Source: a bacterium (GTDB taxonomy: Bacteria; Patescibacteriota; Doudnabacteria; UBA920; VMFF01). Taken from it: 53,672 nucleotides of DNA. Position 1 is the first letter of the stretch. Every line of letters starts with the position of its first letter. The notes under the pieces are model-generated. The model did not search any database. It saw nothing but the letters and a program-made list of their open reading frames with translations, and was not told where the DNA came from. The position numbers and the translations under genes are program-made. This document shows positions 2,901 through 35,393 of the stretch, piece by piece. The DNA lies in assembly GCA_021842385.1 (NCBI GenBank), contig JAKCAE010000038.1, positions 1 through 53,672 of the forward strand, given 5' to 3'.

Positions 2901-4225
2901 ATTTAGAAAAAGTAAAAAAAATATATTTCATTGGCATTGGCGGTATTGGCATGTCTGCTTTGGCAGGCATTGCCAAAGCCAAGGGTTTTTTAGTTTCAGG
3001 TTCAGATTCCAGCGATGTCTACGATCCTTCAAAAGCTGTTTTGGATAAATATGGCATAAGCTATCATATTGGTTTTGAGTTAAAGAACATTGCTGATTTT
3101 AATCTCTCACCTGACGATTTAGTTGTCGTTGGGGCGGCAATTGATTTAGAAAACCCAGAATTAAAATACGCCAAAGAAAATAACTTAAGAATGACTGGCT
3201 ACCCAGAGCTTTTAGAAGTTTTAGTTTCCGACAAAAGAAGAATTGTTGTTGTAGGAACACATGGCAAAGGCACTACCTCAGGTCTCATAGCCTTTGTTTT
3301 AAAAGAGTTGGAAGATTCAGGGTTTTTTGTTGGTGCTGTTTTAACAGATCTGCAAACTAATTTCCATTATGGTAGCGGTCCAAACTTTGTCATAGAAGGG
3401 GATGAATACAGGTCAGGGATTGATGATCCAAAACCTAAGTTTGCATATTACAAACCAGATTTGTTGCTTGTAAATAACATTGAGTTTGATCACCCTGATA
3501 TTTACAAAGATTTAGAAGCATTCAAGGCTCCTTTCAAAAGCTTGGTTTCAGAGATGAAAGAAGATTCAATAATTGTTTACAATGCCGATGATATTAATGT
3601 TTTGGATGTTGTTTCAAAAAGTGTTGCTAAAAAAATTCCTTTCTCACTTTCAGAGCAGAAGAATTACAAATTACCGGGTAAAGCCTATGCCTATGACTAC
3701 CTTGCCGCTAAAACAACCTTGGAAGCTTTAGGCTTTGATTTTAAGCAGTTTGAAAAATATTTCTTAGAATACACAGGCGTTAAAAGACGTTACGAGTTAA
3801 TATATGAAAACAGCATCACGGTTATTGATGATTATGCACATCATCCAACAGCAGTCAGAGAGACTTTAGAAGCAACAAAACAAAAATATCCTCAAAAAAG
3901 AATAGTTTGTTTTTTTGAACCGCACACATATTCCAGAACAAAAGAAACTCTTGCTGATTTAGAAAAAGCTTTTAATTCTGCTGACTTGGTGTATATTGCG
4001 GAAGTGTATCCGGCACGAGAACAGAAGTTACCAAGCAGCATATCAGGACAAGATGTTGTTAGAGCGGTTTCTCGACATCAGCAAAACGTATTTTATGTTT
4101 CAGACAAAAGAGATGCTTTGGATAAATACAGAAAAGAAAAAAAAGACGGCGATGTTGTCATTGTTATGGCTGTTGGTTCATTTAATACTTTAGTCTATGA
4201 TTTAAAGAAAGAATTAGGAGCATAA
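2897..4225 (+). CDS. Mur ligase, MurC/Mpl family (UDP-N-acetylmuramate-adding ligase)
   Basis: IYFIGIGGIGMSALAGIA...VSGSD, P-loop GTHGKGTTS, and EGDEYRSGIDDPKPKFAYYKPDLLLVNNIEFDHPDIY (closer to the Mpl pattern than to canonical MurC). ATGA overlap with the upstream gene. Confidence 0.8.
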   Translation: MNLEKVKKIYFIGIGGIGMSALAGIAKAKGFLVSGSDSSDVYDPSKAVLDKYGISYHIGFELKNIADFNLSPDDLVVVGAAIDLENPELKYAKENNLRMTGYPELLEVLVSDKRRIVVVGTHGKGTTSGLIAFVLKELEDSGFFVGAVLTDLQTNFHYGSGPNFVIEGDEYRSGIDDPKPKFAYYKPDLLLVNNIEFDHPDIYKDLEAFKAPFKSLVSEMKEDSIIVYNADDINVLDVVSKSVAKKIPFSLSEQKNYKLPGKAYAYDYLAAKTTLEALGFDFKQFEKYFLEYTGVKRRYELIYENSITVIDDYAHHPTAVRETLEATKQKYPQKRIVCFFEPHTYSRTKETLADLEKAFNSADLVYIAEVYPAREQKLPSSISGQDVVRAVSRHQQNVFYVSDKRDALDKYRKEKKDGDVVIVMAVGSFNTLVYDLKKELGA

Positions 4226-5509: not shown

Positions 5510-5863
5510 TCATGAGCAGATGTCGGTGAGAGCAGCCTTTTCGGTTTCGCCGAAAGGCTTGCTCAAGATCACGGTGAAGTGTTGCGGGTTGAAAGCGCTG
5601 TTCGGGTTGCCGCTCATCCCGAACATGCTCGCTTTCGGGAACTTCGCAGCGAACTTCGCAGCGACATCGTTGCCTGTGCCATCACCCAGGTCGAAGTCTG
5701 TCAGCAGTACGTCGAAGGTTTCGCTGTCTTCGATCGCTGAGAAAGCTTCCGATACGCTGGAAGCCAACACTACGCTGACATCGGGGTTTGTGCGTAGAAT
5801 CAGATCCCCGATGAATCTGCGAACCGCTTCCTGATCCTCGACTACTAGGACTTTTGTGCTCAC
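5510..5863 (-). CDS. Single-domain response regulator receiver (CheY-like), on GC-rich cassette 1
   Basis: VLVVEDQ (acidic pocket), VLLTDFDLGDGTG (phospho-acceptor Asp), GMSGN (Ser/Thr position), LSKPF (Lys-Pro). GTG start with AGGAGG 8 nt upstream. 36/60 G+C at 5581-5640. Confidence 0.85.
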   Translation of the reverse strand: MSTKVLVVEDQEAVRRFIGDLILRTNPDVSVVLASSVSEAFSAIEDSETFDVLLTDFDLGDGTGNDVAAKFAAKFPKASMFGMSGNPNSAFNPQHFTVILSKPFGETEKAALTDICS

Positions 5864-10213: not shown

Positions 10214-11695
10214 ATGAGAAAAAATCTACGGCTCTACGTGACTTTCCTTTTTATACTCTTAATAGCGGCTTTTGCAGCATATATAGATCATCCAAAGGGG
10301 AGTAAAATTGACCTTAAAAAGCTTAAAATTAGCTTTACAAGGGAGTTTAAGCCCCATCTGGGCTTGGACCTCCAAGGTGGAAGCCATCTTGAATATCAAG
10401 GCGATTTAAAAGAAGTTGCTCCGGAAAAACAAAGAGAAGCAATGGAGTCTTTAAGATCTGCTATAGAGCGCAGGGTTTTTTACTTTGGAGTTCAGGAACC
10501 CCTGGTTGAATCGGCAGGCTCTGACCGAATCATTGTTGAACTACCTGGTATTACTGATATTAACGAAGCCATAAAAGTTATTGGTCAAACTCCGTTTTTG
10601 GAGTTTAGAGAAGTAAGCAACGAACCAGCAACAGCAACAGTTGTTGATGGCAAAGCAGTTGTGGATCCACTCTCTCAGTGGAAAGCAACAGGACTTACCG
10701 GAAAAGATTTGGATACAGCAACTGTAGATTTTAACCAGCAAACGGGAAATCCTCAGATTCTCTTGCAGTTTAATTCAAATGGCGCAAAGCTTTTTTCAGA
10801 AATTACATCAAGGAATATTAGCAAACCAGTTGCCATTTTCTTAGATGGTTCTCCGCTTTCAACACCAACAGTTCAGAATGTCATCACAGACGGTAAAGCC
10901 GTGATTACAGGACAGTTTACTGTTAAAGAAGCAAAAGAGTTAGTTTCCAGATTAAACTCCGGTGCTTTGCCTGTACCAATTCATTTAATTTCTCAGCAAA
11001 ATGTTGGTGCAAGTTTAGGTAAGGACTCTATTCAGAAAAGCGTTGTTGCTGGGTTAATTGGTTTGTTAATGATTGCTCTATTCATGATTGTCTATTACAG
11101 ACTCCCTGGTTTTTTAGCTGTTTTTGCTTTAGCAATTTACGCATTGTTAACATTCGCGATTTTTAAGATCGGTATTTCTGTGACAGCTGTTTTATTAGTT
11201 GGAGCATTTTTGATGCTTGCTCTAACTTCAAGCTGGTGGTTTGGAGTCTTGGGCGGTGCTACATATTTAATTTTAATGCTTCTTGGAGGTTTGCATCCTG
11301 TTACTTTAACTCTAGCCGGTATTGCAGGTTTTATCTTGTCTATCGGTATGGCAGTTGATGCAAACATCTTAATCTTTGAACGCACTAAAGAAGAACTTCG
11401 TTTAGGAAAAGATGTTAACAAGGCCTTGGAAGACGGTTTTAACAGAGCATGGCTTTCAATTAGAGATTCTAATGCTTCAAGCTTAATTACAACTTTAATC
11501 TTGTATATCTTTGGAACACCGGCAATAAAGAGTTTCGCAGAAACCCTTGCTATTGGTATTATAATTTCCCTGTTTACGGCAATTACAGTTACGAGAACGT
11601 TCCTTAAAATGTTTGTTGGTCACAACATTTTGTCACATCCGTGGCTTTTCGGTGTGCGCAAAATGAACAAAGAATTAACAGCTCAAGGAAAGTAA
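10214..11695 (+). CDS. secD: Protein translocase subunit SecD
   Basis: N-terminal TM, GLDLQGG periplasmic domain, C-terminal 6-TM RND-like bundle. Immediately upstream of secF. Confidence 0.9.
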   Translation: MRKNLRLYVTFLFILLIAAFAAYIDHPKGSKIDLKKLKISFTREFKPHLGLDLQGGSHLEYQGDLKEVAPEKQREAMESLRSAIERRVFYFGVQEPLVESAGSDRIIVELPGITDINEAIKVIGQTPFLEFREVSNEPATATVVDGKAVVDPLSQWKATGLTGKDLDTATVDFNQQTGNPQILLQFNSNGAKLFSEITSRNISKPVAIFLDGSPLSTPTVQNVITDGKAVITGQFTVKEAKELVSRLNSGALPVPIHLISQQNVGASLGKDSIQKSVVAGLIGLLMIALFMIVYYRLPGFLAVFALAIYALLTFAIFKIGISVTAVLLVGAFLMLALTSSWWFGVLGGATYLILMLLGGLHPVTLTLAGIAGFILSIGMAVDANILIFERTKEELRLGKDVNKALEDGFNRAWLSIRDSNASSLITTLILYIFGTPAIKSFAETLAIGIIISLFTAITVTRTFLKMFVGHNILSHPWLFGVRKMNKELTAQGK

Positions 11696-11699
11696 AGCA

Positions 11700-12590
11700 A
11701 TGTTGAATATCATAAAACACTACAAATTTTGGTTTTCAGTTTCAGGAGTTATTTTCTTGGCAGGAGTAATTTCTCTTTCTCTCTATGGTTTAAGGCCAGG
11801 ACTTGATTTTACAGGTGGTTCCTTGGCTCAGCTTTCTTTCAAGAGTCAGCCAAATATACAAATCATAAAAGATGAAGTTTCCAAGGTAGTAGACAACGCA
11901 GCTGTACAAACAGCAGGGGAGAATGATGTTATCATCAGAACCAAAGCTTTAGAAAAAGATCAGCTTGAAAAAATATACGCAGGGTTAAAAGCAAGTCAGG
12001 GTGAATTTACTGAAAAATCATATAGTTTGATTGGTCCGATTGTTAGCAAGGAGTTAATTTGGAAAGCAATTTGGCAGTTAGTCTTAGTTTCCTTAGGTAT
12101 TGTCTTCTATATAGCCTATGCTTTCAGAAAAATAACTAAACCAATCACATCTTGGAAATTCGGTTGGGCTGCAATCATTGCTTTGCTTCATGATTTAATC
12201 ATCGTGCTTGGTTTGTTTTCAGTGCTTGGTCATTTTGCGCATGTTGAAGTTGATACAATGTTTGTTACAGCGCTACTTACTGTGCTTGGTTTTTCTGTGC
12301 ATGACACAATTGTTGTTTTTGACAGAATCAGAGAGAACATGAGAGTAGAAGCAGGCAAACCAATAGAAGAAATTGTGAATCACAGCATTAATCAGACCAT
12401 AGTCAGGTCCTTAAACACTTCCTTAACTGTTTTGTTTGTGCTTTTGTCGCTCTTGCTTTTCGGAGGCGCTACAATAAAATACTTTGTTCTAGCTCTTTTT
12501 GTCGGAGTCATAGCTGGAACATACTCTTCAATCTTCATAGCTAGCCCCTTGTTGGTTGTTTGGGAGAAATGGCAGCACAGAAGAGCGTAA
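11700..12590 (+). CDS. secF: Protein translocase subunit SecF
   Basis: GLDFTGG motif and C-terminal TM bundle with HDTIVVFDRIREN. Confidence 0.9.
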   Translation: MLNIIKHYKFWFSVSGVIFLAGVISLSLYGLRPGLDFTGGSLAQLSFKSQPNIQIIKDEVSKVVDNAAVQTAGENDVIIRTKALEKDQLEKIYAGLKASQGEFTEKSYSLIGPIVSKELIWKAIWQLVLVSLGIVFYIAYAFRKITKPITSWKFGWAAIIALLHDLIIVLGLFSVLGHFAHVEVDTMFVTALLTVLGFSVHDTIVVFDRIRENMRVEAGKPIEEIVNHSINQTIVRSLNTSLTVLFVLLSLLLFGGATIKYFVLALFVGVIAGTYSSIFIASPLLVVWEKWQHRRA

Positions 12591-17971: not shown

Positions 17972-18247
17972 ATGACACAGACCGACATGATACAACTGCT
18001 CCGTGATGCCTCAATTGCGGAAAGCGAGGCAGAAGCAAAATCCTGCCGTGACCAGTTCGTGGAGGCGTTCCGTGGTCTGGATCACTGGACCCAGTGCGTG
18101 CTCGCAGATCTCTATGATGAAGTGTTGCGTCGGTCACCGCGCGACCTTCCTGACCAGCTGATCTTCTACATGTACCTCAAGAGTGCCTCCGGCACCACCG
18201 AGCATGGACTCGGGCGACTGGAGCCTGCTACGGTCATGATGCGCTGA
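17972..18247 (+). CDS. Orphan 91-aa protein on GC-rich cassette 2
   Basis: Intact ORF with G/C-ending codon bias. 33/60 and 35/60 G+C at 18001-18120. No recognised motif. Weak SD (GGGGG 3 nt upstream). Confidence 0.5.
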   Translation: MTQTDMIQLLRDASIAESEAEAKSCRDQFVEAFRGLDHWTQCVLADLYDEVLRRSPRDLPDQLIFYMYLKSASGTTEHGLGRLEPATVMMR

Positions 18248-18264: not shown

Positions 18265-18297
18265 CAGGGGCGATCTCGCAGCTAGAGATCGCCCCTG
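18265..18297. terminator. Perfect 13-bp GC-rich hairpin between convergent genes
   Basis: caggggcgatctc (18265-18277) / gagatcgcccctg (18285-18297). Read on the minus strand it is followed by TTTTG, so it could also terminate hppA. Confidence 0.65.
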
Positions 18298-18313
18298 TGC
18301 CACGTCTAGATAC

Positions 18314-29908: not shown

Positions 29909-30979
29909 ATGAAAGAAAAAACAAAAATTCATTTAAAAACACTGATACTGGCTTTCGCAGTTTTAAACGCTGCTTTATTTACAGTGCCACAATTAGCGCA
30001 TGCTGACATCGGTTCCATACTAAAAGGGCAAATTTGTGAACCTGACAACAGCGCAATGGGTTCGGCGTTTAACATAGGCAGGTGTATTAACAACATCTAT
30101 ATCTTCGCAATAAGCATAGCAGGCTTCATTGCGGTTTTAATGTTTGTTTTAGCAGGATACAACTATATTACCGGGACATCTGAGTCAATCAGTGAAGCAA
30201 AGAAAATAATGGGCTCAACAGTCCTTGGTCTAGTTATCCTTTTTGGTACATTTTTGCTTTTAAACACCATAGATCCGAATCTTACAAAAGTTCCAGCACT
30301 TGTTGCACCACAGGTTAATTGTTTACAAGTTGACACAGGCGGAAAGACAGAAAATATCTGTGCTGATTTGCCTGACCAATTACCATATCCACTTGATGCA
30401 AACGGAAATCCTGTGGGATTGTCAGGGGGTAAAATTGTAACAGCTGGAACAACAATACAGCCGCCAGCGAATAATAATAACTTGCCAGCAGGGACTAAAA
30501 CCATCCAACCTTGCATTAATTGTATTGATTTAACACAGGGGTTACCGATTATAGTAAAAAAGACAACAGATCCTAACAGAGTTAAACAATACTATGTAAG
30601 CAAAGATTTGGCACAGCGTTTGGTTAACCTAAATTACTATTTTGCAAACGAGAGAGCATCAAAATCTGGTTTCACACCAGCAACTACATTAAATTGGCGT
30701 GTCACTGAAGCCTGGCCTCCAACAGTCGCTCATGCTTCTGATTGTCACTTTGACGGTACATGTGCTGATATTGCCATTGATAACCGAGACAGCTATTCAA
30801 AGGGAGAACTCATACAAGGCATAAAAATACTTTGTACAGCCGCAAAGAAAGCAAATCTAAGCATACTAAATGAATATTTCGAATTTACAGCCGCTGAACT
30901 AGCAGGGGATACAGGTTCAAATTGTGGAGCCCCGGCTAAAACCGATTACAGTACAGTAGGTCATTTACATGTTAAATAG
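29909..30979 (+). CDS. Membrane protein: TrbC/VirB2-pilin-like two-TM N-terminus plus LAS/M15-like zinc-peptidase-like C-terminal domain
   Basis: Signal peptide and two TM helices (IFAISIAGFIAVLMFVLAGY; VLGLVILFGTFLLL). C-terminal TEAWPPTVAHASDCHFDGTCADIAI...GHLHV resembles the SxHxxGxAxD...H pattern of M15. Confidence 0.4.
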   Translation: MKEKTKIHLKTLILAFAVLNAALFTVPQLAHADIGSILKGQICEPDNSAMGSAFNIGRCINNIYIFAISIAGFIAVLMFVLAGYNYITGTSESISEAKKIMGSTVLGLVILFGTFLLLNTIDPNLTKVPALVAPQVNCLQVDTGGKTENICADLPDQLPYPLDANGNPVGLSGGKIVTAGTTIQPPANNNNLPAGTKTIQPCINCIDLTQGLPIIVKKTTDPNRVKQYYVSKDLAQRLVNLNYYFANERASKSGFTPATTLNWRVTEAWPPTVAHASDCHFDGTCADIAIDNRDSYSKGELIQGIKILCTAAKKANLSILNEYFEFTAAELAGDTGSNCGAPAKTDYSTVGHLHVK

Positions 30980-31490
30980 ACGGTATAACTTAAATTACCA
31001 ACAAGCCGGTACACTAATCGCATTTATAGTACTGGCTATTTTTGTAATTAAATTTCTGAATACTCCCAAAAACGAAAATCCTTTAACAAACAAAGACGAA
31101 TTCGAGATTGGTCTATGCAGAACTTGTGTGTTAATAGAAAACAAAGGTTTGGTCATAGATTCTGATCGTGGTGAGTACTTAGATACTGCCTTAATCAAAA
31201 AATTGACATTACTGGCAGGGGAGAACAAGAACTGGAGAATTACAGAGGCATATCCGCCGACTGTACAGCATTTAAGCTTCTGCCATCAAAATGGGACGTG
31301 TGCTGACATAGCTTTACAGAGAAACTTACTTAACAAGGACCGTTTATCAAACCTTTGTAAGGACGCGCTTGCTGCTGGTTTAACTGTTGTTAATGAATAT
31401 GGTGATTTAAAATATTATTCACCAAATTCTTTTTGCCCAAAACCGAATATCTTTGAGACCACAACAGGCGGTCACTTACATGTGTATTAA
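30969..31490 (+). CDS. Paralog of the preceding C-terminal domain (LAS/M15-like) with an N-terminal TM anchor
   Basis: TEAYPPTVQHLSFCHQNGTCADIAL...GGHLHVY aligns by eye with 29909-30979. 11-nt overlap with it. Confidence 0.4.
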   Translation: MLNRRYNLNYQQAGTLIAFIVLAIFVIKFLNTPKNENPLTNKDEFEIGLCRTCVLIENKGLVIDSDRGEYLDTALIKKLTLLAGENKNWRITEAYPPTVQHLSFCHQNGTCADIALQRNLLNKDRLSNLCKDALAAGLTVVNEYGDLKYYSPNSFCPKPNIFETTTGGHLHVY

Positions 31491-31584
31491 ACGCTATTTT
31501 TTTAAATCATTTGTCGTATAAGCTACATTGTGCGACTAGGGATAAATCTTAAAGAGAGTAGTCCCCTAGGCCTTTAGGTAGCAC

Positions 31585-31614
31585 GAAACCCAGGTCCTAC
31601 AATTCCTGGGTTTC
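31585..31614 (-). terminator. Perfect 10-bp hairpin ending cassette 3
   Basis: gaaacccagg (31585-31594) / cctgggtttc (31605-31614), 19 nt downstream of the minus-strand TAG at 31634-31636. Confidence 0.55.
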
Positions 31615-31633
31615 AGTGTATTCACAACAACTT

Positions 31634-31813
31634 CTAGTCGCGCGCAGCATCGTCGCTACAGCGCTTACAGAGGACGCCAGAAGCATCGTCACCGCAGCGT
31701 GCGCAACGATACGGCTTTCCAGCTTCCTCGTAGCCGGGATCCTGCATGTGCGCGAAAGTGCCTGGCGCTGGTGCATTTGCTGGCTTCTGGTGAAGCGAAA
31801 GAGGGGTGGTCAT
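31634..31813 (-). CDS. 59-aa Cys4 (CxxC-x8-CxxC) mini-protein, cassette 3 gene B (absent from the ORF track)
   Basis: My translation: MTTPLSLHQKPANAPAPGTFAHMQDPGYEEAGKPYRCARCGDDASGVLCKRCSDDAARD. GGAGA lies 3 nt upstream of the ATG. 36/60 G+C at 31681-31740. Confidence 0.5.
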   Translation of the reverse strand: MTTPLSLHQKPANAPAPGTFAHMQDPGYEEAGKPYRCARCGDDASGVLCKRCSDDAARD

Positions 31814-31834
31814 ATGTCTCCTGGGGTTGAGGGG

Positions 31835-32023
31835 CTAGCGAACTTCCTGGCCCATGAAGAAGACAGCGTTGCAGTCAGGTTCCCCGCCTTGGTTGCTGCA
31901 AATCTGCAACTGTCCGCTAATTTCTAACGGGCTCGTGCAGAACGTGCACTGCTTCAGCGGGTACATCTGCGCATCTGAAATCTTGCGACCTTGCTCGGTT
32001 GCCCCGACTTGCTTTGTTGCCAT
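31835..32023 (-). CDS. 62-aa Cys4 (CxxC-x12-C-x8-C) mini-protein, cassette 3 gene A
   Basis: MATKQVG...KQCTFCTSPLEISGQLQICSNQGGEPDCNAV. GAGGG lies 7 nt upstream of the ATG. 21-nt gap to gene B. Confidence 0.5.
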   Translation of the reverse strand: MATKQVGATEQGRKISDAQMYPLKQCTFCTSPLEISGQLQICSNQGGEPDCNAVFFMGQEVR

Positions 32024-32084
32024 GTTTAGACCCTCGTGGTGGGAGGTCTTGTTGTGTGTATCTTCCCTGCTTTAAGTTCACTGT

Positions 32085-32114
32085 AGGATAGCAGTAGGGA
32101 GATATTTACGTCAA
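32085..32114 (-). promoter_or_regulatory. Sigma70-like promoter for cassette 3, abutting the pepN stop codon
   Basis: Minus strand reads TTGACG (32114-32109), 18 nt spacer, TATCCT (32090-32085). Confidence 0.35.
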
Positions 32115-34685
32115 TTATTTATTAAAAAATTCTAAAAGTATTTCTCGATCACTTTTAATCCAAGCAACATTTGCTCGAATTTGTTCTAATGATTGTTGTA
32201 TAGAACGCTCAGCACCAGGCGCTGGATTAACTTTAAAAAACTCGGAAATATCTAAGGCAATCTTTTCTGTAGTAAAAACTTCTAACGCACTGGTGATTCT
32301 AGGAAACTCGTGTCCCCCACCTCCAAACTTATTTAGCAAATATTTCCAATTTTGTTTGACAAATTTCCACGCTAAATGTTTGCTTCGTCTTGAAGATAGC
32401 GCGCTTGCTAAGAAAAGCATTGTGTCTTGATTCCTGACTTCTTTAGAAAGAAAGAACTTCAAAACATCAGCCAATATCTCTTGGTCTTTAAAATGCGGCA
32501 AGACTCTAGCAATACGATGTTTTTCTTCATGCAATTTTGCGTGCTTATAAAGCTTTCTTAACTGTTTGTATTCTTTAAATCCCCCGTTAATTGCAACCGC
32601 AGAATAAACTATCTGTTTAATATCTGGATCAATGCGTTTACCTTGTGAAAGTTGTTTAAACATTGCGAGAGCTTTTGCTGTAGTTTGTTGATCTCCGTAC
32701 CTAACCGCATTTGCAAGAATTAAACTTCTTAAAAGACTTTGTGTATGCGTCTCTTTGGGTTTTTTGCTCCAATCGACTCGCTTTACCATTGGTGAGAATA
32801 TATCTCTGCAATGTTTTTCAAAAGCGTCTTTAAAATCTTCATTTTCTAACACTCTAGAAAGATGCAAGAGTCCTGATGATATTTCAACCCAGACATTGTA
32901 GTTATCCTCGTTTTTGTAAGCTTCTAAAAGATCTAGAACCTCAGTTGTTGGAATATATCCGGCTTGAGCCAGAGCAAAAGCATTGCTAATCAGCGCTAGA
33001 CGGTCCTTTGGATCAAGTTTTTTCGTTAAAATTGCCTGTTTAAGGTCGTTTAAAAAAGCAGGTTGATACTTTACTCGATAAAAGCCAGTTTCATTAAGGT
33101 TTAATTTAAGCCACTCCCCTTTTTTGAGTGGTTTAGTTATTGCAGAATTTTTTTCTAGTAAAATATTTTCTGTTTTTGTCTTGCTTAGAAAAATAGAAAC
33201 TGGGATTTTCCAGAGAGTTTTTTTCTTGTTTGCTTTTCTTGAAACAGAGCTGGAAAAAAAACGCTCTTGAGACATATGAATATTTCCTTTTGCATCCTTT
33301 GTTTCTACAGAAATCACAGGATATCCTGGTTGTTTTGTCCAAGTGCGCATCAGAGGAGCCACCTTCTTTTTAGAAACCTCTTCGAAAGCATGCCAGAGGT
33401 CTTCAGTAACAGCATTACCGTAAGCGTGTTTTTTTAGGTAGTGTCTTAGGCCATTTCGAAAATCTTTCTCTCCCAGGTAATTTGCGAGCATGCGAATAAC
33501 GCTGGCGCCTTTGGAATAACTGATGGTATCGAATATTTCGTCAATTTCAGTTGGGTGATGCACCACCACCTCAATTGGGTGGGTATTTTTTAGTGCGTCT
33601 AAACTTAATGCAAGACCTTGGTAGTTGAAAACAAATTGATCCCAGACTTTCCAGGAAGGAAAAATATGATCAAGTGCTAAGTGTTCAATATATGAAGCAA
33701 AACCCTCATTAAGCCAAAGATCAGTCCACCATTCCATAGTTACAAGGTTTCCAAACCACTGATGTGCTAACTCATGGGTGATAGTTAAAGCGACTTGTTG
33801 TTTGTTTGCAATAGATGAGTGGTCAGGATCGATCAAAAGCGCTGTTTCTCTGTAAGTTACAGCACCCCAGTTTTCCATAGCTGCTGCAGAAAAATCAGGC
33901 AGTGCGATCATATCTAAAACTGGCAATGGATACTTAATATCAAAATATTGTTCGTAGAAATCAAGAGATTTGATAGCTACATCTAAAGCAAACTTTGCTT
34001 GTTTCTTTTTCCCAGGAGTCACGAAAACTCTTACTAAAACATTGTTTTTTGTTTTGCCTTCTATGAATTCAAAATTACCAACAATGAATGCAAGTAAATA
34101 GGTTGACATCTTTGGGGTTGGCGCAAACTTAACTATTTCCCAGCCTTGATGTTCTGAAATCGCAACTGGTAAAGTATTTGAAATTGCGTGGAAACCTTTT
34201 TGAACCATTAATGTAACGTCAAAAACCGCTTTGGCAGCAGGCTCATCAAAACAAGGAAAAGCATTACGGGCAAAGGTTGATTCAAATTGAGTTGTTGCTA
34301 TGTGTTTGAGTTTGCCTTCATGCTCATAGCTGCTCCTGTAAAAACCATTTAAGCGATCTTCTAAGAGCCCGTTAAACTTAATTCCAAGCTCTCCCCTGCC
34401 CTTTGGCAGTTTCTTGCTAAATGAAAAAACAACTTGCTCTAAAGAGCTTTCATATTTGATGCTTTTTGGTTTGTATTTTTTCCCCAAAGAAAAATACTCA
34501 ACTGATTCAATAACCAAATTCTTTGAATGTAGAACGATCTCCCTGTCAGACTTTAAAAGCTCCAGGGAAATGGTTTCTTCAGCCTCGTATTTAAAAGTTT
34601 TTAAATCCGGTTTTATGAATATTTTGTAGTTTGTTGGTTTAACGTGCTTAGGCAATCTAACTGCTTGTTTTTTTGGTTTTGTCAT
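32115..34685 (-). CDS. pepN: M1 family aminopeptidase N (ERAP/F3-like type with large C-terminal domain)
   Basis: AAMENWGAVTY, HELAHQWFGNLVTMEWW, LWLNEGFASY. ATG 34685 (MTKPKK...) is preferred over the TTG at 34712. Confidence 0.9.
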   Translation of the reverse strand: MTKPKKQAVRLPKHVKPTNYKIFIKPDLKTFKYEAEETISLELLKSDREIVLHSKNLVIESVEYFSLGKKYKPKSIKYESSLEQVVFSFSKKLPKGRGELGIKFNGLLEDRLNGFYRSSYEHEGKLKHIATTQFESTFARNAFPCFDEPAAKAVFDVTLMVQKGFHAISNTLPVAISEHQGWEIVKFAPTPKMSTYLLAFIVGNFEFIEGKTKNNVLVRVFVTPGKKKQAKFALDVAIKSLDFYEQYFDIKYPLPVLDMIALPDFSAAAMENWGAVTYRETALLIDPDHSSIANKQQVALTITHELAHQWFGNLVTMEWWTDLWLNEGFASYIEHLALDHIFPSWKVWDQFVFNYQGLALSLDALKNTHPIEVVVHHPTEIDEIFDTISYSKGASVIRMLANYLGEKDFRNGLRHYLKKHAYGNAVTEDLWHAFEEVSKKKVAPLMRTWTKQPGYPVISVETKDAKGNIHMSQERFFSSSVSRKANKKKTLWKIPVSIFLSKTKTENILLEKNSAITKPLKKGEWLKLNLNETGFYRVKYQPAFLNDLKQAILTKKLDPKDRLALISNAFALAQAGYIPTTEVLDLLEAYKNEDNYNVWVEISSGLLHLSRVLENEDFKDAFEKHCRDIFSPMVKRVDWSKKPKETHTQSLLRSLILANAVRYGDQQTTAKALAMFKQLSQGKRIDPDIKQIVYSAVAINGGFKEYKQLRKLYKHAKLHEEKHRIARVLPHFKDQEILADVLKFFLSKEVRNQDTMLFLASALSSRRSKHLAWKFVKQNWKYLLNKFGGGGHEFPRITSALEVFTTEKIALDISEFFKVNPAPGAERSIQQSLEQIRANVAWIKSDREILLEFFNK

Positions 34686-34699
34686 ATATTTAAAGTTTA

Positions 34700-34740
34700 A
34701 CAGAAACAACAAACGCTCGCATCCCCATATACGAGCGTTT
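34700..34740 (-). terminator. Rho-independent terminator ending cassette 4
   Basis: aaacgctcg (34711-34719) / cgagcgttt (34732-34740). On the minus strand it overlaps the TGA stop and is followed by GTTGTTTCTGTT. Confidence 0.65.
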
Positions 34741-35393
34741 CATGAATTAAGACCTGCCTCCTTAAGTTTAGCCGTCAAAAACATGGCGTCATCAACCTGC
34801 CTTCTGACTTCCTGGAGATTGTCATAGCAGTGCAACCAATAGCTTGCTGCCTGCTGGAGGCTCTTACTGACAGAGACTTCTCTTACTATCTCAAGCTGAA
34901 CATCTCTGGGCACGCGACCAATGATCGGGCGCTCGTGGATCTTTTTAAACTGCAGCATTACATGCGAGAACGGATCTGGTTTTGAGTTTGGATCCATATA
35001 CTGTGGCTGCTTACCTAGCAGTAATGCTTCAACAGTTTCCTCGCCGTTGAAATATCTAACAATGTAAGCATCAGTTGGATCTGCAACAGTACCGTGCACG
35101 CCTTGTATGATGTTACGTATCTGGAAGCGCTGGCGCTGCACATCAACCAGAGCTTGAGCAGCAAGGGCAGCTTTCAGACAAAGCTCATCACCAAGAGTTG
35201 TTTCTGCAAGCTGTATTACCCTGCCTCCTCCCAAGGTTACTGCCGATATCTCAGCTTCCTTGCCAAACCACAAAAGCGCTGTGTTGAAGAAGTTGGGAAT
35301 GAAGAGCAAAGGATTGCTCAAAGCTTGTCTCCCTCCAGCCTTGACTATCAGTTGTATGACCCAGGCCTCCATGAAGGAGAGTCTGCGCAACAT
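34740..35393 (-). CDS. Orphan 217-aa protein on GC-enriched cassette 4
   Basis: Intact ORF. 29/60 and 31/60 G+C at 34861-34920 and 35101-35160, versus about 21/60 in backbone. No recognised motif. Confidence 0.6.
   Translation of the reverse strand: MLRRLSFMEAWVIQLIVKAGGRQALSNPLLFIPNFFNTALLWFGKEAEISAVTLGGGRVIQLAETTLGDELCLKAALAAQALVDVQRQRFQIRNIIQGVHGTVADPTDAYIVRYFNGEETVEALLLGKQPQYMDPNSKPDPFSHVMLQFKKIHERPIIGRVPRDVQLEIVREVSVSKSLQQAASYWLHCYDNLQEVRRQVDDAMFLTAKLKEAGLNS

Follow-up and report, generated by a model that had tools for sequence, protein, structure and literature searches.

Background

Published core sites of Xer recombinases are about 28 bp long and consist of two partly palindromic arms of 11 bp around a centre of 6 to 8 bp. 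The dif site of Legionella has been characterized as a sequence of about 30 bp that is palindromic, located at the skew maximum, non-coding, and conserved between variable flanks. Among the integrative mobile elements exploiting Xer (IMEX), the gonococcal genetic island (attachment site difGGI) and TLC-phi (attP) possess sites that share the dif centre and have one divergent arm. XafT, the TLC-phi Xer activation factor, is encoded by the dif-integrated element and acts on the host Xer machinery, and the published account of plasmid pdif modules describes modules of resistance genes. Here we describe a G+C-rich island of about 0.57 kb in a 53,672-nucleotide stretch of DNA (contig JAKCAE010000038.1, hereafter the window) from a member of Candidatus Doudnabacteria. 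The island holds only two short genes, A and B, each encoding a mini-protein with four cysteines (Cys4), and it lies beside a probable dif site.

The Doudnabacteria belong to the Patescibacteria (Candidate Phyla Radiation), whose genomes are tiny and contain many orphan genes. To our knowledge, dimer resolution and the uptake of foreign DNA in Patescibacteria are almost wholly uncharted. Small zinc-finger or zinc-ribbon micro-proteins are represented by the haloarchaeal CPxCG proteins, Com of phage Mu, Ogr/Delta of P2, and Lar; those that are known bind a partner protein or RNA and have no catalytic role. No dif site for Patescibacteria was found in the searchable literature, and literature searches for zinc-ribbon small proteins in this group and for the assemblies studied here likewise returned nothing. 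On balance, we favour the reading that the A-B locus is a fixed island at dif, descended from DNA inserted by Xer recombination in the manner of IMEX and encoding two zinc-containing adaptor or regulator proteins.

Genes A and B and their conservation

Open reading frame (ORF) A, at 31835-32023 on the minus strand, encodes 62 amino acids with an isoelectric point (pI) of 5.05; it is preceded by GAGGG and ends with TAG, and its orthologues are P0001 and P0004. ORF B, at 31634-31813 on the same strand, encodes 59 amino acids with a pI of 6.0 and has the orthologues P0002 and P0003. The translation of ORF B made by hand in a first-pass annotation of the window is identical to the recomputed one. 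Neither gene is among the called genes on record for the window's own genome, and B is present in the L004 group though the gene caller skipped it there. Open runs of 62 to 121 codons occur in all six frames of this G+C-rich stretch, so the ORFs by themselves are not beyond chance and the comparative evidence is decisive.

Six lineages, all of Candidatus Doudnabacteria, were compared: the window, the L004 group, L010, L011, L013 and L015. They were collected by protein searches, with a fifth added by a metagenome scan and a sixth by an exhaustive profile search with A. The gene order is identical in all of them, namely pepN, A, B and a convergent gene of 173 to 177 amino acids, and a search from the neighbouring 173-amino-acid protein identified three other assemblies with identical copies of the locus. 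Both frames, all eight cysteines, the promoter hexamers and the stem of the hairpin are kept in every one of the six lineages. The ratio of nonsynonymous to synonymous divergence (dN/dS) is 0.14-0.19 for A and 0.05-0.23 for B at a synonymous divergence (dS) of 0.5-1.4, and the corresponding values for the flanking pepN are 0.06-0.09 at a dS of 0.66-1.25, a range similar to that of A and B. Variable columns at codon positions 1, 2 and 3 number 20, 15 and 37 in A and 7, 11 and 35 in B. A contains two indels (6 and 9 nt), neither of which breaks the frame. The spacer between A and B is otherwise unconserved, yet a Shine-Dalgarno-like (SD-like) element before B is retained. Judged by this substitution pattern, the in-frame indels and the shared synteny, A and B are genuine protein-coding genes, co-inherited with their neighbours and under purifying selection.

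The possibility that the region is non-coding in these two frames, and instead holds a gene on the plus strand (31616-31927), a structured RNA or ORFs that are open by chance, draws on the fact that G+C-rich DNA opens long runs in all six frames, and on the frequency of RNA genes among G+C-rich islands of A+T-rich genomes. Against an RNA, Rfam gave no match in 31400-32200 even at E = 10, and the folding z-scores of the island on its two strands, relative to shuffled sequence, are only -1.25 and -0.76. At gathering thresholds, Rfam identified only a tRNA-Gln in the whole window, outside the island, and the sole 150-nt segment that folds better than its shuffles (z = -4.6, plus strand) is the one containing dif, with no covariation. 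Against a plus-strand gene, the 103-amino-acid ORF is interrupted in four of five lineages, by stops or by a frameshift, and most of the variable columns of B correspond to codon position 1 of that frame. With dN/dS far below 1 and in-frame indels in A and B, a non-coding region has next to no probability. The first-pass annotation had proposed two tandem Cys4 mini-protein genes and had singled out the plus-strand frame and the cysteines of homologues as the points on which the proposal would turn; the plus-strand frame is interrupted, as described above, and all homologues have the same cysteine pattern, so that the proposal stands.

A candidate dif site at the terminus

The first-pass annotation described the unit correctly but missed its setting. 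At 31511-31538 on the plus strand, 95 nt from the island, lies the 28-bp palindrome TTGTCGTATAA-GCTACA-TTGTGCGACTA, with an 11-6-11 arrangement, which is very probably the chromosomal dif site. When the island was compared by BLAST with contigs of distant Doudnabacteria, chosen because they encode more remote homologues of the 173-amino-acid protein, a single match of 30 to 38 nt with 89-97% identity was obtained, and this match is the region of the 28-mer. The consensus form, TTGTCGCATAA-GCTACA-TTGTGCGACAA, is identical in L016, L018 and L019, whose neighbouring proteins are just 53-59% identical to those of the window, and the window differs from it at two positions. The arms of the consensus are identical at 10 of 11 positions and their outer 8 bp are perfectly complementary; arms so nearly identical may be bound by a single recombinase. 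The 28-mer is unique in the window, has zero matches in shuffled sequences, and is found once in each of the 17 loci (17/17) that span this position. It is non-coding and remains conserved between species whose flanking genes differ.

The composition of the surrounding DNA changes at the same place. The G-C skew of the window is +0.070 to the left of the 28-mer and -0.082 to the right, and a change of sign at the 28-mer is seen in four of five other loci (L004, L016, L018 and L019). Coding strand usage switches from 83% plus to 85% minus across it, and the cumulative skew reaches its maximum at 32101, within a plateau from 29.8 to 34.4 kb. With the 28-mer as the probable dif, the window is probably centred on the replication terminus. 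The 28-mer shows every one of the features by which dif was characterized in Legionella. It shares CGCATAA and the beginning of the right arm, TT.TG, with dif of Escherichia coli (GGTGCGCATAA-TGTATA-TTATGTTAAAT). Positions 7-12 and 17-22 form four Watson-Crick pairs and one G-T pair, to be set beside the "more than four" of Kono et al.

DNA beside the candidate dif and the proposed origin of the island

The two sides of dif differ in their conservation. To the left lies a conserved backbone composed of WecG/NUDIX, GlnRS, an M23 peptidase, a pilin-like gene and a gene of 173 to 190 amino acids. To the right, the DNA is G+C-rich and its content differs between lineages. L016 has two dif-like sites there in the same orientation, TGATCGCTTGC-GCTACA-GTGTGCGAAAC (10370-10397) and AGATCCCTTGC-GCTACA-TTATGCAAAAA (10758-10785), which flank a G+C-rich ORF of 65 amino acids; a G+C-rich ParB-like gene follows, whose product has 30-34% identity to plasmid partition proteins. 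In its arrangement, the whole region (10370-11836) looks like an array of Xer-exploiting modules. L018 possesses one dif-like site in the same orientation, TGTACGCTTGC-GCTACA-TTACACGAAGA (3686-3713), together with two tandem small ORFs of the CxxC...CxxC type transcribed towards dif. In L019 no further dif-like site was detected, and two tandem Cys4 mini-ORFs of the same type, also directed towards dif, are present. These tandem pairs are the only hydrophilic ORFs of their kind in the L018 and L019 loci; L016 has no such pair. The three secondary sites (two in L016 and one in L018) keep the centre GCTACA and share a left arm of their own (..CTTGC). A preserved dif centre with a distinct arm is the pattern described for Xer-exploiting elements.

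The G+C-rich islands of L018 (4355-5446) and L019 (8444-9401) each contain the two Cys4 mini-ORFs and a gene of 131 to 144 amino acids, all directed towards dif, and gene callers captured only part of these genes. The two islands are homologous, with 34% identity between their first proteins (E = 2e-5) and 32% between the products of their third genes (E = 3e-13); these proteins are far more diverged than the host proteins nearby, whose identity is 52-77%. None of the proteins encoded by the islands of L016, L018 and L019 has a homologue in the window. Two further contigs, L020 (9888-9906) and L006, stop inside dif, at or next to the central region. Contigs would end there because an assembler forks where differing sequences adjoin the crossover region, and the two ends suggest that differing sequences adjoin dif within the sampled populations of L020 and L006. 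Apart from these islands, the distant Doudnabacteria loci carry a small stand-alone gene with a GIY-YIG nuclease domain about 220-270 nt to the left of dif (L016 6586-6870, L018 2958-3254, L019 7582-7839, L020 9419-9661), which is absent from that place in the window clade.

Variable, G+C-rich DNA on this side of dif, partly bounded by dif-like sites, makes it probable that the island of the window derives from an insertion at dif. According to the favoured reading, ancestral DNA would have been inserted at dif by the host Xer recombinase, as IMEX are, and the island would then have become fixed and been held under purifying selection. The segment 31585-32114, read on the minus strand, would constitute a self-contained bicistronic unit with an extended -10 promoter of the sigma-70 type, a leader of about 55 nt, A, B and a hairpin. 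Genes A and B would be co-transcribed towards dif, and their products, two proteins stabilized by zinc, would work jointly on a larger protein or complex. Since the window clade retains no second site, the Xer-mediated step is proposed from the analogous loci L016 and L018. IMEX are recognized as DNA directly at dif without an integrase of its own, and the island carries only A and B and starts within 95 nt of the site. A possible second dif-like site over the -35 region was considered and discarded, since its resemblance (7 of 11 positions) is within chance by our own count.

The first-pass annotation had put the G+C content of the segment at about 60%. The enrichment is real, with a lower figure: 54.2% over 31585-32114 and 57.7% in the coding part, compared with 37.9% for the whole window. 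G+C at third codon positions (GC3) was measured for A and B in four lineages; it lies at 0.52-0.68, compared with 0.30-0.33 for host genes. Among singleton changes at third positions in A and B, 12-17 are from G or C to A or T and 18-19 are the reverse, showing no drift towards A+T; these changes were polarized by parsimony on saturated sites, which is crude, and are taken to show no more than that decay is not apparent. They imply an equilibrium GC3 of about 0.65-0.69 for A and B; the same computation gives about 0.40 for pepN. A recent import should, at a synonymous divergence of about 1, drift towards host composition, and since A and B do not do so their GC3 looks stationary.

Several observations weigh against the favoured reading. 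In the window clade, the island lacks a second bounding dif-like site in which matching arms enclose a GCTACA centre. All six related lineages have the island, with no variation in its presence, and its substitution history is not clearly distinct from that of the adjacent pepN. A stationary GC3 suits an old resident locus as well as an import. The mini-ORFs of L018 and L019 have no detectable homology to A or B beyond the cysteine knuckles. No Xer recombinase was found among the eight window ORFs scanned, which are mostly of about 300 amino acids and all encode other enzymes. Identity between the window and L004 is 87% over promoter plus leader and 90.5% from dif to the stop of B, and the non-coding DNA from the stop of B to the convergent gene is 89-92% identical among lineages. 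This level (87-90%) is no higher than that of other short intergenic regions of the genome (77-93%), so flank conservation by itself has little weight as a sign of a special element. As for the proteins, the AlphaFold2 model of A is unusable, with a predicted local distance difference test score (pLDDT) of 43, and Pfam gives sub-threshold zinc-finger matches for B and none for A.

Site patterns were also compared on the two sides of dif. The 173-amino-acid gene places the window as a clear outgroup (80 sites versus 26 and 24), ORF B groups the window with L010 (19 versus 6 versus 11), and pepN and ORF A are star-like. The difference in phylogenetic signal (30969-33000; L004, L010, L011 and L013) points to past recombination around the terminus. 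Tree incongruence was also considered as a sign that the island moves independently, and this was rejected; the weak hint is confined to ORF B, and pepN is star-like too.

Alternative explanations

The best of the competing explanations, which we nevertheless consider unlikely, is that A and B form an old, native and fast-evolving locus and not an insertion, and that the zinc pair acts at the terminus itself, for example by assisting or controlling Xer recombination, FtsK or fork fusion at dif. The window clade, L018 and L019 have in common the position, the dif-ward orientation and the type of product, and the mutual homology of the L018 and L019 islands means that this part at least was inherited and not re-acquired. 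A stationary GC3 agrees with long residence, and the small, element-encoded Xer activator XafT offers a precedent for the proposed activity. However, recurrence of the type is not accompanied by detectable homology of A and B to the L018 and L019 proteins, the pair is missing from L016, and pI values of 5.0 and 6.0 do not favour DNA binding. The unusual base composition suggests foreign DNA or some special process, and distance is the only link between A/B and Xer. A bolder form of the same idea, in which paired zinc mini-proteins would be a hallmark of a family of loci or elements resident at dif and specific to Patescibacteria, would bind and control the host's probably single Xer recombinase or FtsK as a cysteine-rich counterpart of XafT, and would owe their stable G+C-richness to recombination at dif as a by-product, is decidedly unlikely.

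It is very unlikely that A and B serve a selfish or conflict role as the cargo of a mobile element, either as an addiction pair resembling a toxin and antitoxin or as an anti-defence factor. A two-gene operon of small proteins is what such a pair would look like, an inverted repeat over the promoter fits autoregulation, and the composition is anomalous. Plasmid pdif modules, which often carry toxin-antitoxin pairs, provide an analogy. Nevertheless, no toxin, antitoxin or defence match was returned by PADLOC, PHROG, Pfam or NCBIfam, no relatives occur in the phages, plasmids and viral contigs searched, and neither protein is roomy enough for a known toxin fold. Moreover, the genes occur as one fixed copy at a single locus, where purifying selection has acted over the long term. 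The first-pass suggestions of regulators, antitoxin-like factors or anti-defence factors found no direct support, there being no PADLOC, PHROG or phage matches and both proteins being acidic.

It is highly improbable that A and B are precursors of cysteine-modified peptides, similar to ribosomally synthesized and post-translationally modified peptides, or metal-storage peptides: small tandem cysteine-containing ORFs with a pepN peptidase gene and an ABC transporter nearby would suit this, but the neighbourhood contains no maturase (radical SAM, cyclodehydratase or lanthipeptide enzyme), the transporter is of the importer type (BPD_transp_1), B is conserved over its whole length without a leader-and-core pattern, CxxC pairs at fixed spacing are what structural zinc sites typically show, and each protein has no more than four cysteines.

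Organization of the A-B unit

The promoter, both ORFs, the 21-nt gap, the SD-like elements and the hairpin that had been placed here by the first-pass annotation were all recovered at the same positions. The stop codon of pepN (TAA, minus strand) occupies 32115-32117 and is directly abutted by a -35-like hexamer TTGACG (32109-32114, minus), which is invariant in the six lineages. An extended -10-like element, TGC-TATCCT (32085-32093, minus), is conserved in the six lineages, with TATTCT in some of them; TATCCT itself is at 32090-32085, separated from the -35 hexamer by an 18-nt spacer whose end, TGC, constitutes the extended -10 (TGn). The same TTGACG/TATCCT site was also picked by a consensus promoter scan. 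An imperfect inverted repeat, TCTCCCTACTGC ... GCAGGGAAGA (32061-32102), encloses the -10 element together with the likely start of transcription of the unit; both of its arms are kept in the six lineages, and it is a possible operator.

The leader (32024-32084, minus) is conserved and contains an SD-like GAGG 8-9 nt before the ATG of ORF A, as well as an upstream CCUC that is able to pair with this GAGG. The spacer between A and B, 21 nt long (31814-31834, minus), contains GGAGA and is the least conserved piece, with 37-65% identity. An SD-like element of the GGAG/GAGG type (GAGAG in L013 and GGGA in L015) precedes the ATG of B by 5-10 nt in all lineages. Behind B is a hairpin, GAAACCCAGG / CCTGGGTTTC (31585-31614), with a perfect 10-bp stem, a 10-nt loop and no U tract. 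Its stem is invariant and its loop variable across the six lineages, and it is likely to mark the end of the A-B transcript. The spacer between the hairpin and dif (31539-31584) is conserved and contains a second inverted repeat, CTAGGGA ... TCCCCTAG. The stems in the conserved 3' flank are invariant and offer no covariation, and either strand may carry the structure. The term cassette, in the sense of a repeated unit, does not apply: a repeat search found the island and its flanks nowhere else in the window.

Proteins A and B

A and B are unrelated acidic proteins of 6-7 kDa. The cysteine motif of A is C26-x2-C29-x12-C42-x8-C51 and its 19 N-terminal residues are variable; the motif of B is C37-x2-C40-x8-C49-x2-C52. 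In Pfam, A has no family at E <= 1, and B has sub-threshold zinc-finger matches only, the best being zf-UBR (17.6 bits, cut-off 25.2) and DZR_2 (13.7 bits, cut-off 27). PHROGs, NCBIfam and PADLOC yield nothing for A and, for B, one sub-threshold NCBIfam match (TIGR00269, 16.4 bits, cut-off 62.75). The named zinc-finger families considered, namely zf-C4_Topoisom, Lar, Ogr/Delta, Mu Com, DZR, the UBR box and the C-terminal finger of TtuA, were set aside as none scored above its curated cut-off. Sequence profiles of the PDB return one weak match for A (E = 0.34) and, for B, the C2H2-finger linker 'GEKPYxCxxCG' (per-stretch E > 8) with weak UBR-box and RecR matches.

The search for wider relatives was equally sparse. 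Viral contigs, phage records and plasmid records, searched as DNA and as protein, contain no relatives of A or B. A word-indexed search of 5.8 billion proteins returned close orthologues only, and the exhaustive profile search with A, over 1.84 billion representatives, returned one further orthologue and four spurious repeat proteins. The first-pass statement that neither protein matches a nameable family is borne out by the failure to assign either to a family of Pfam, NCBIfam, PHROGs or PADLOC. By these searches, A and B are two new orphan micro-protein families without a nameable family.

AlphaFold2 predicts low-confidence coil for the N-terminal half of B and, towards the C-terminus, a knuckle and a short helix with a pLDDT of 77-83. 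The best Foldseek matches to this model are generic zinc knuckles (ribosomal proteins, TtuA) at E >= 2. Although disorder is predicted for them, the 34 N-terminal residues of B are almost invariant, which is the signature of a linear motif docking on a partner. The acidic pI of both proteins argues against classical nucleic-acid binding. In each protein, the four invariant cysteines most probably coordinate a single zinc ion. A resembles a module of the zinc-ribbon type preceded by a variable N-terminal tail, and B is modelled as a conserved disordered tail followed by a C-terminal zinc knuckle and helix. We infer that A and B would act together as zinc-stabilized adaptor or regulator modules of a larger protein or complex.

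Other features of the window

Several other parts of the window depart from its average composition. The gene at 34740-35393 (minus), of 217 amino acids and with a G+C content of 0.48, is hypervariable: its nucleotide identity between the window and L004 is 52.8% (dN 0.55), and the intergenic DNA on both of its sides is 89-93% identical. Its product has no match in any library searched. A second G+C-rich mini-unit contains an ORF of 91 amino acids (17972-18247, plus) with a GC3 of 0.65 and no family match, together with a promoter-like TTGACA ... TGgTATTTT and a G+C-rich hairpin at 18266-18300. At 5510-5863 (minus), where the local G+C content is 0.46, a stand-alone receiver-domain response regulator of 117 amino acids is encoded, which has a weak PADLOC match to PDC-M60B. 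Finally, the segment 38750-39020, upstream of a cysteine desulfurase gene, has a G+C content of about 0.47-0.55 and no credible ORF. It has no Rfam match at E = 1 and a folding z-score of -1.7, and may be an undescribed RNA.

Comparison with known systems

The candidate dif site resembles the sites of single-recombinase systems (XerH/difH, XerS/difSL, XerA and XerL) in its 11-6-11 arrangement, its near-identical arms, its location at the skew maximum, its uniqueness and its non-coding nature. It differs from the described dif/Xer systems in being a candidate known from sequence alone, with no recombinase found in the ORFs scanned.

The island is similar to IMEX, such as CTX-phi, TLC-phi, VGJ-phi, the gonococcal genetic island and LME-1 of Legionella, and to pdif modules in being foreign-looking DNA beside dif without an integrase; the 65-amino-acid ORF between the two dif-like sites of L016 is particularly similar to a pdif module. 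Unlike IMEX, the island of the window measures only 0.57 kb, has no replication or phage genes and no detectable second site, is fixed in six lineages under purifying selection, and is stably more G+C-rich than its host. XafT is likewise a small protein encoded by an element integrated at dif, and so a precedent for a gene beside dif; this likeness is one of setting alone, as XafT is a helix-turn-helix (DUF3653) protein that is not cysteine-rich, whereas A and B are.

A and B share with the small prokaryotic zinc-finger micro-proteins a length of 55-75 amino acids and two cysteine pairs 8-20 residues apart, with little else. They differ from them in that no family profile of Pfam, NCBIfam or PHROGs matches and both are acidic, in the unusual second knuckle of A (C-x8-C), and in the conserved disordered tail of 34 residues in B. 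Small zinc-finger proteins and dif-adjacent islands are thus already-known kinds. The new elements are two conserved orphan micro-protein families, partly overlooked by standard gene callers; a candidate dif site for Doudnabacteria and hence for Patescibacteria, with secondary dif-like sites in sister genomes as signs of Xer-exploiting insertions in this phylum; and a stably G+C-rich island in an A+T-rich genome, an evolutionary puzzle in which a GC3 of 0.52-0.68 has been kept in a genome with a GC3 of 0.30 across about one synonymous change per site.

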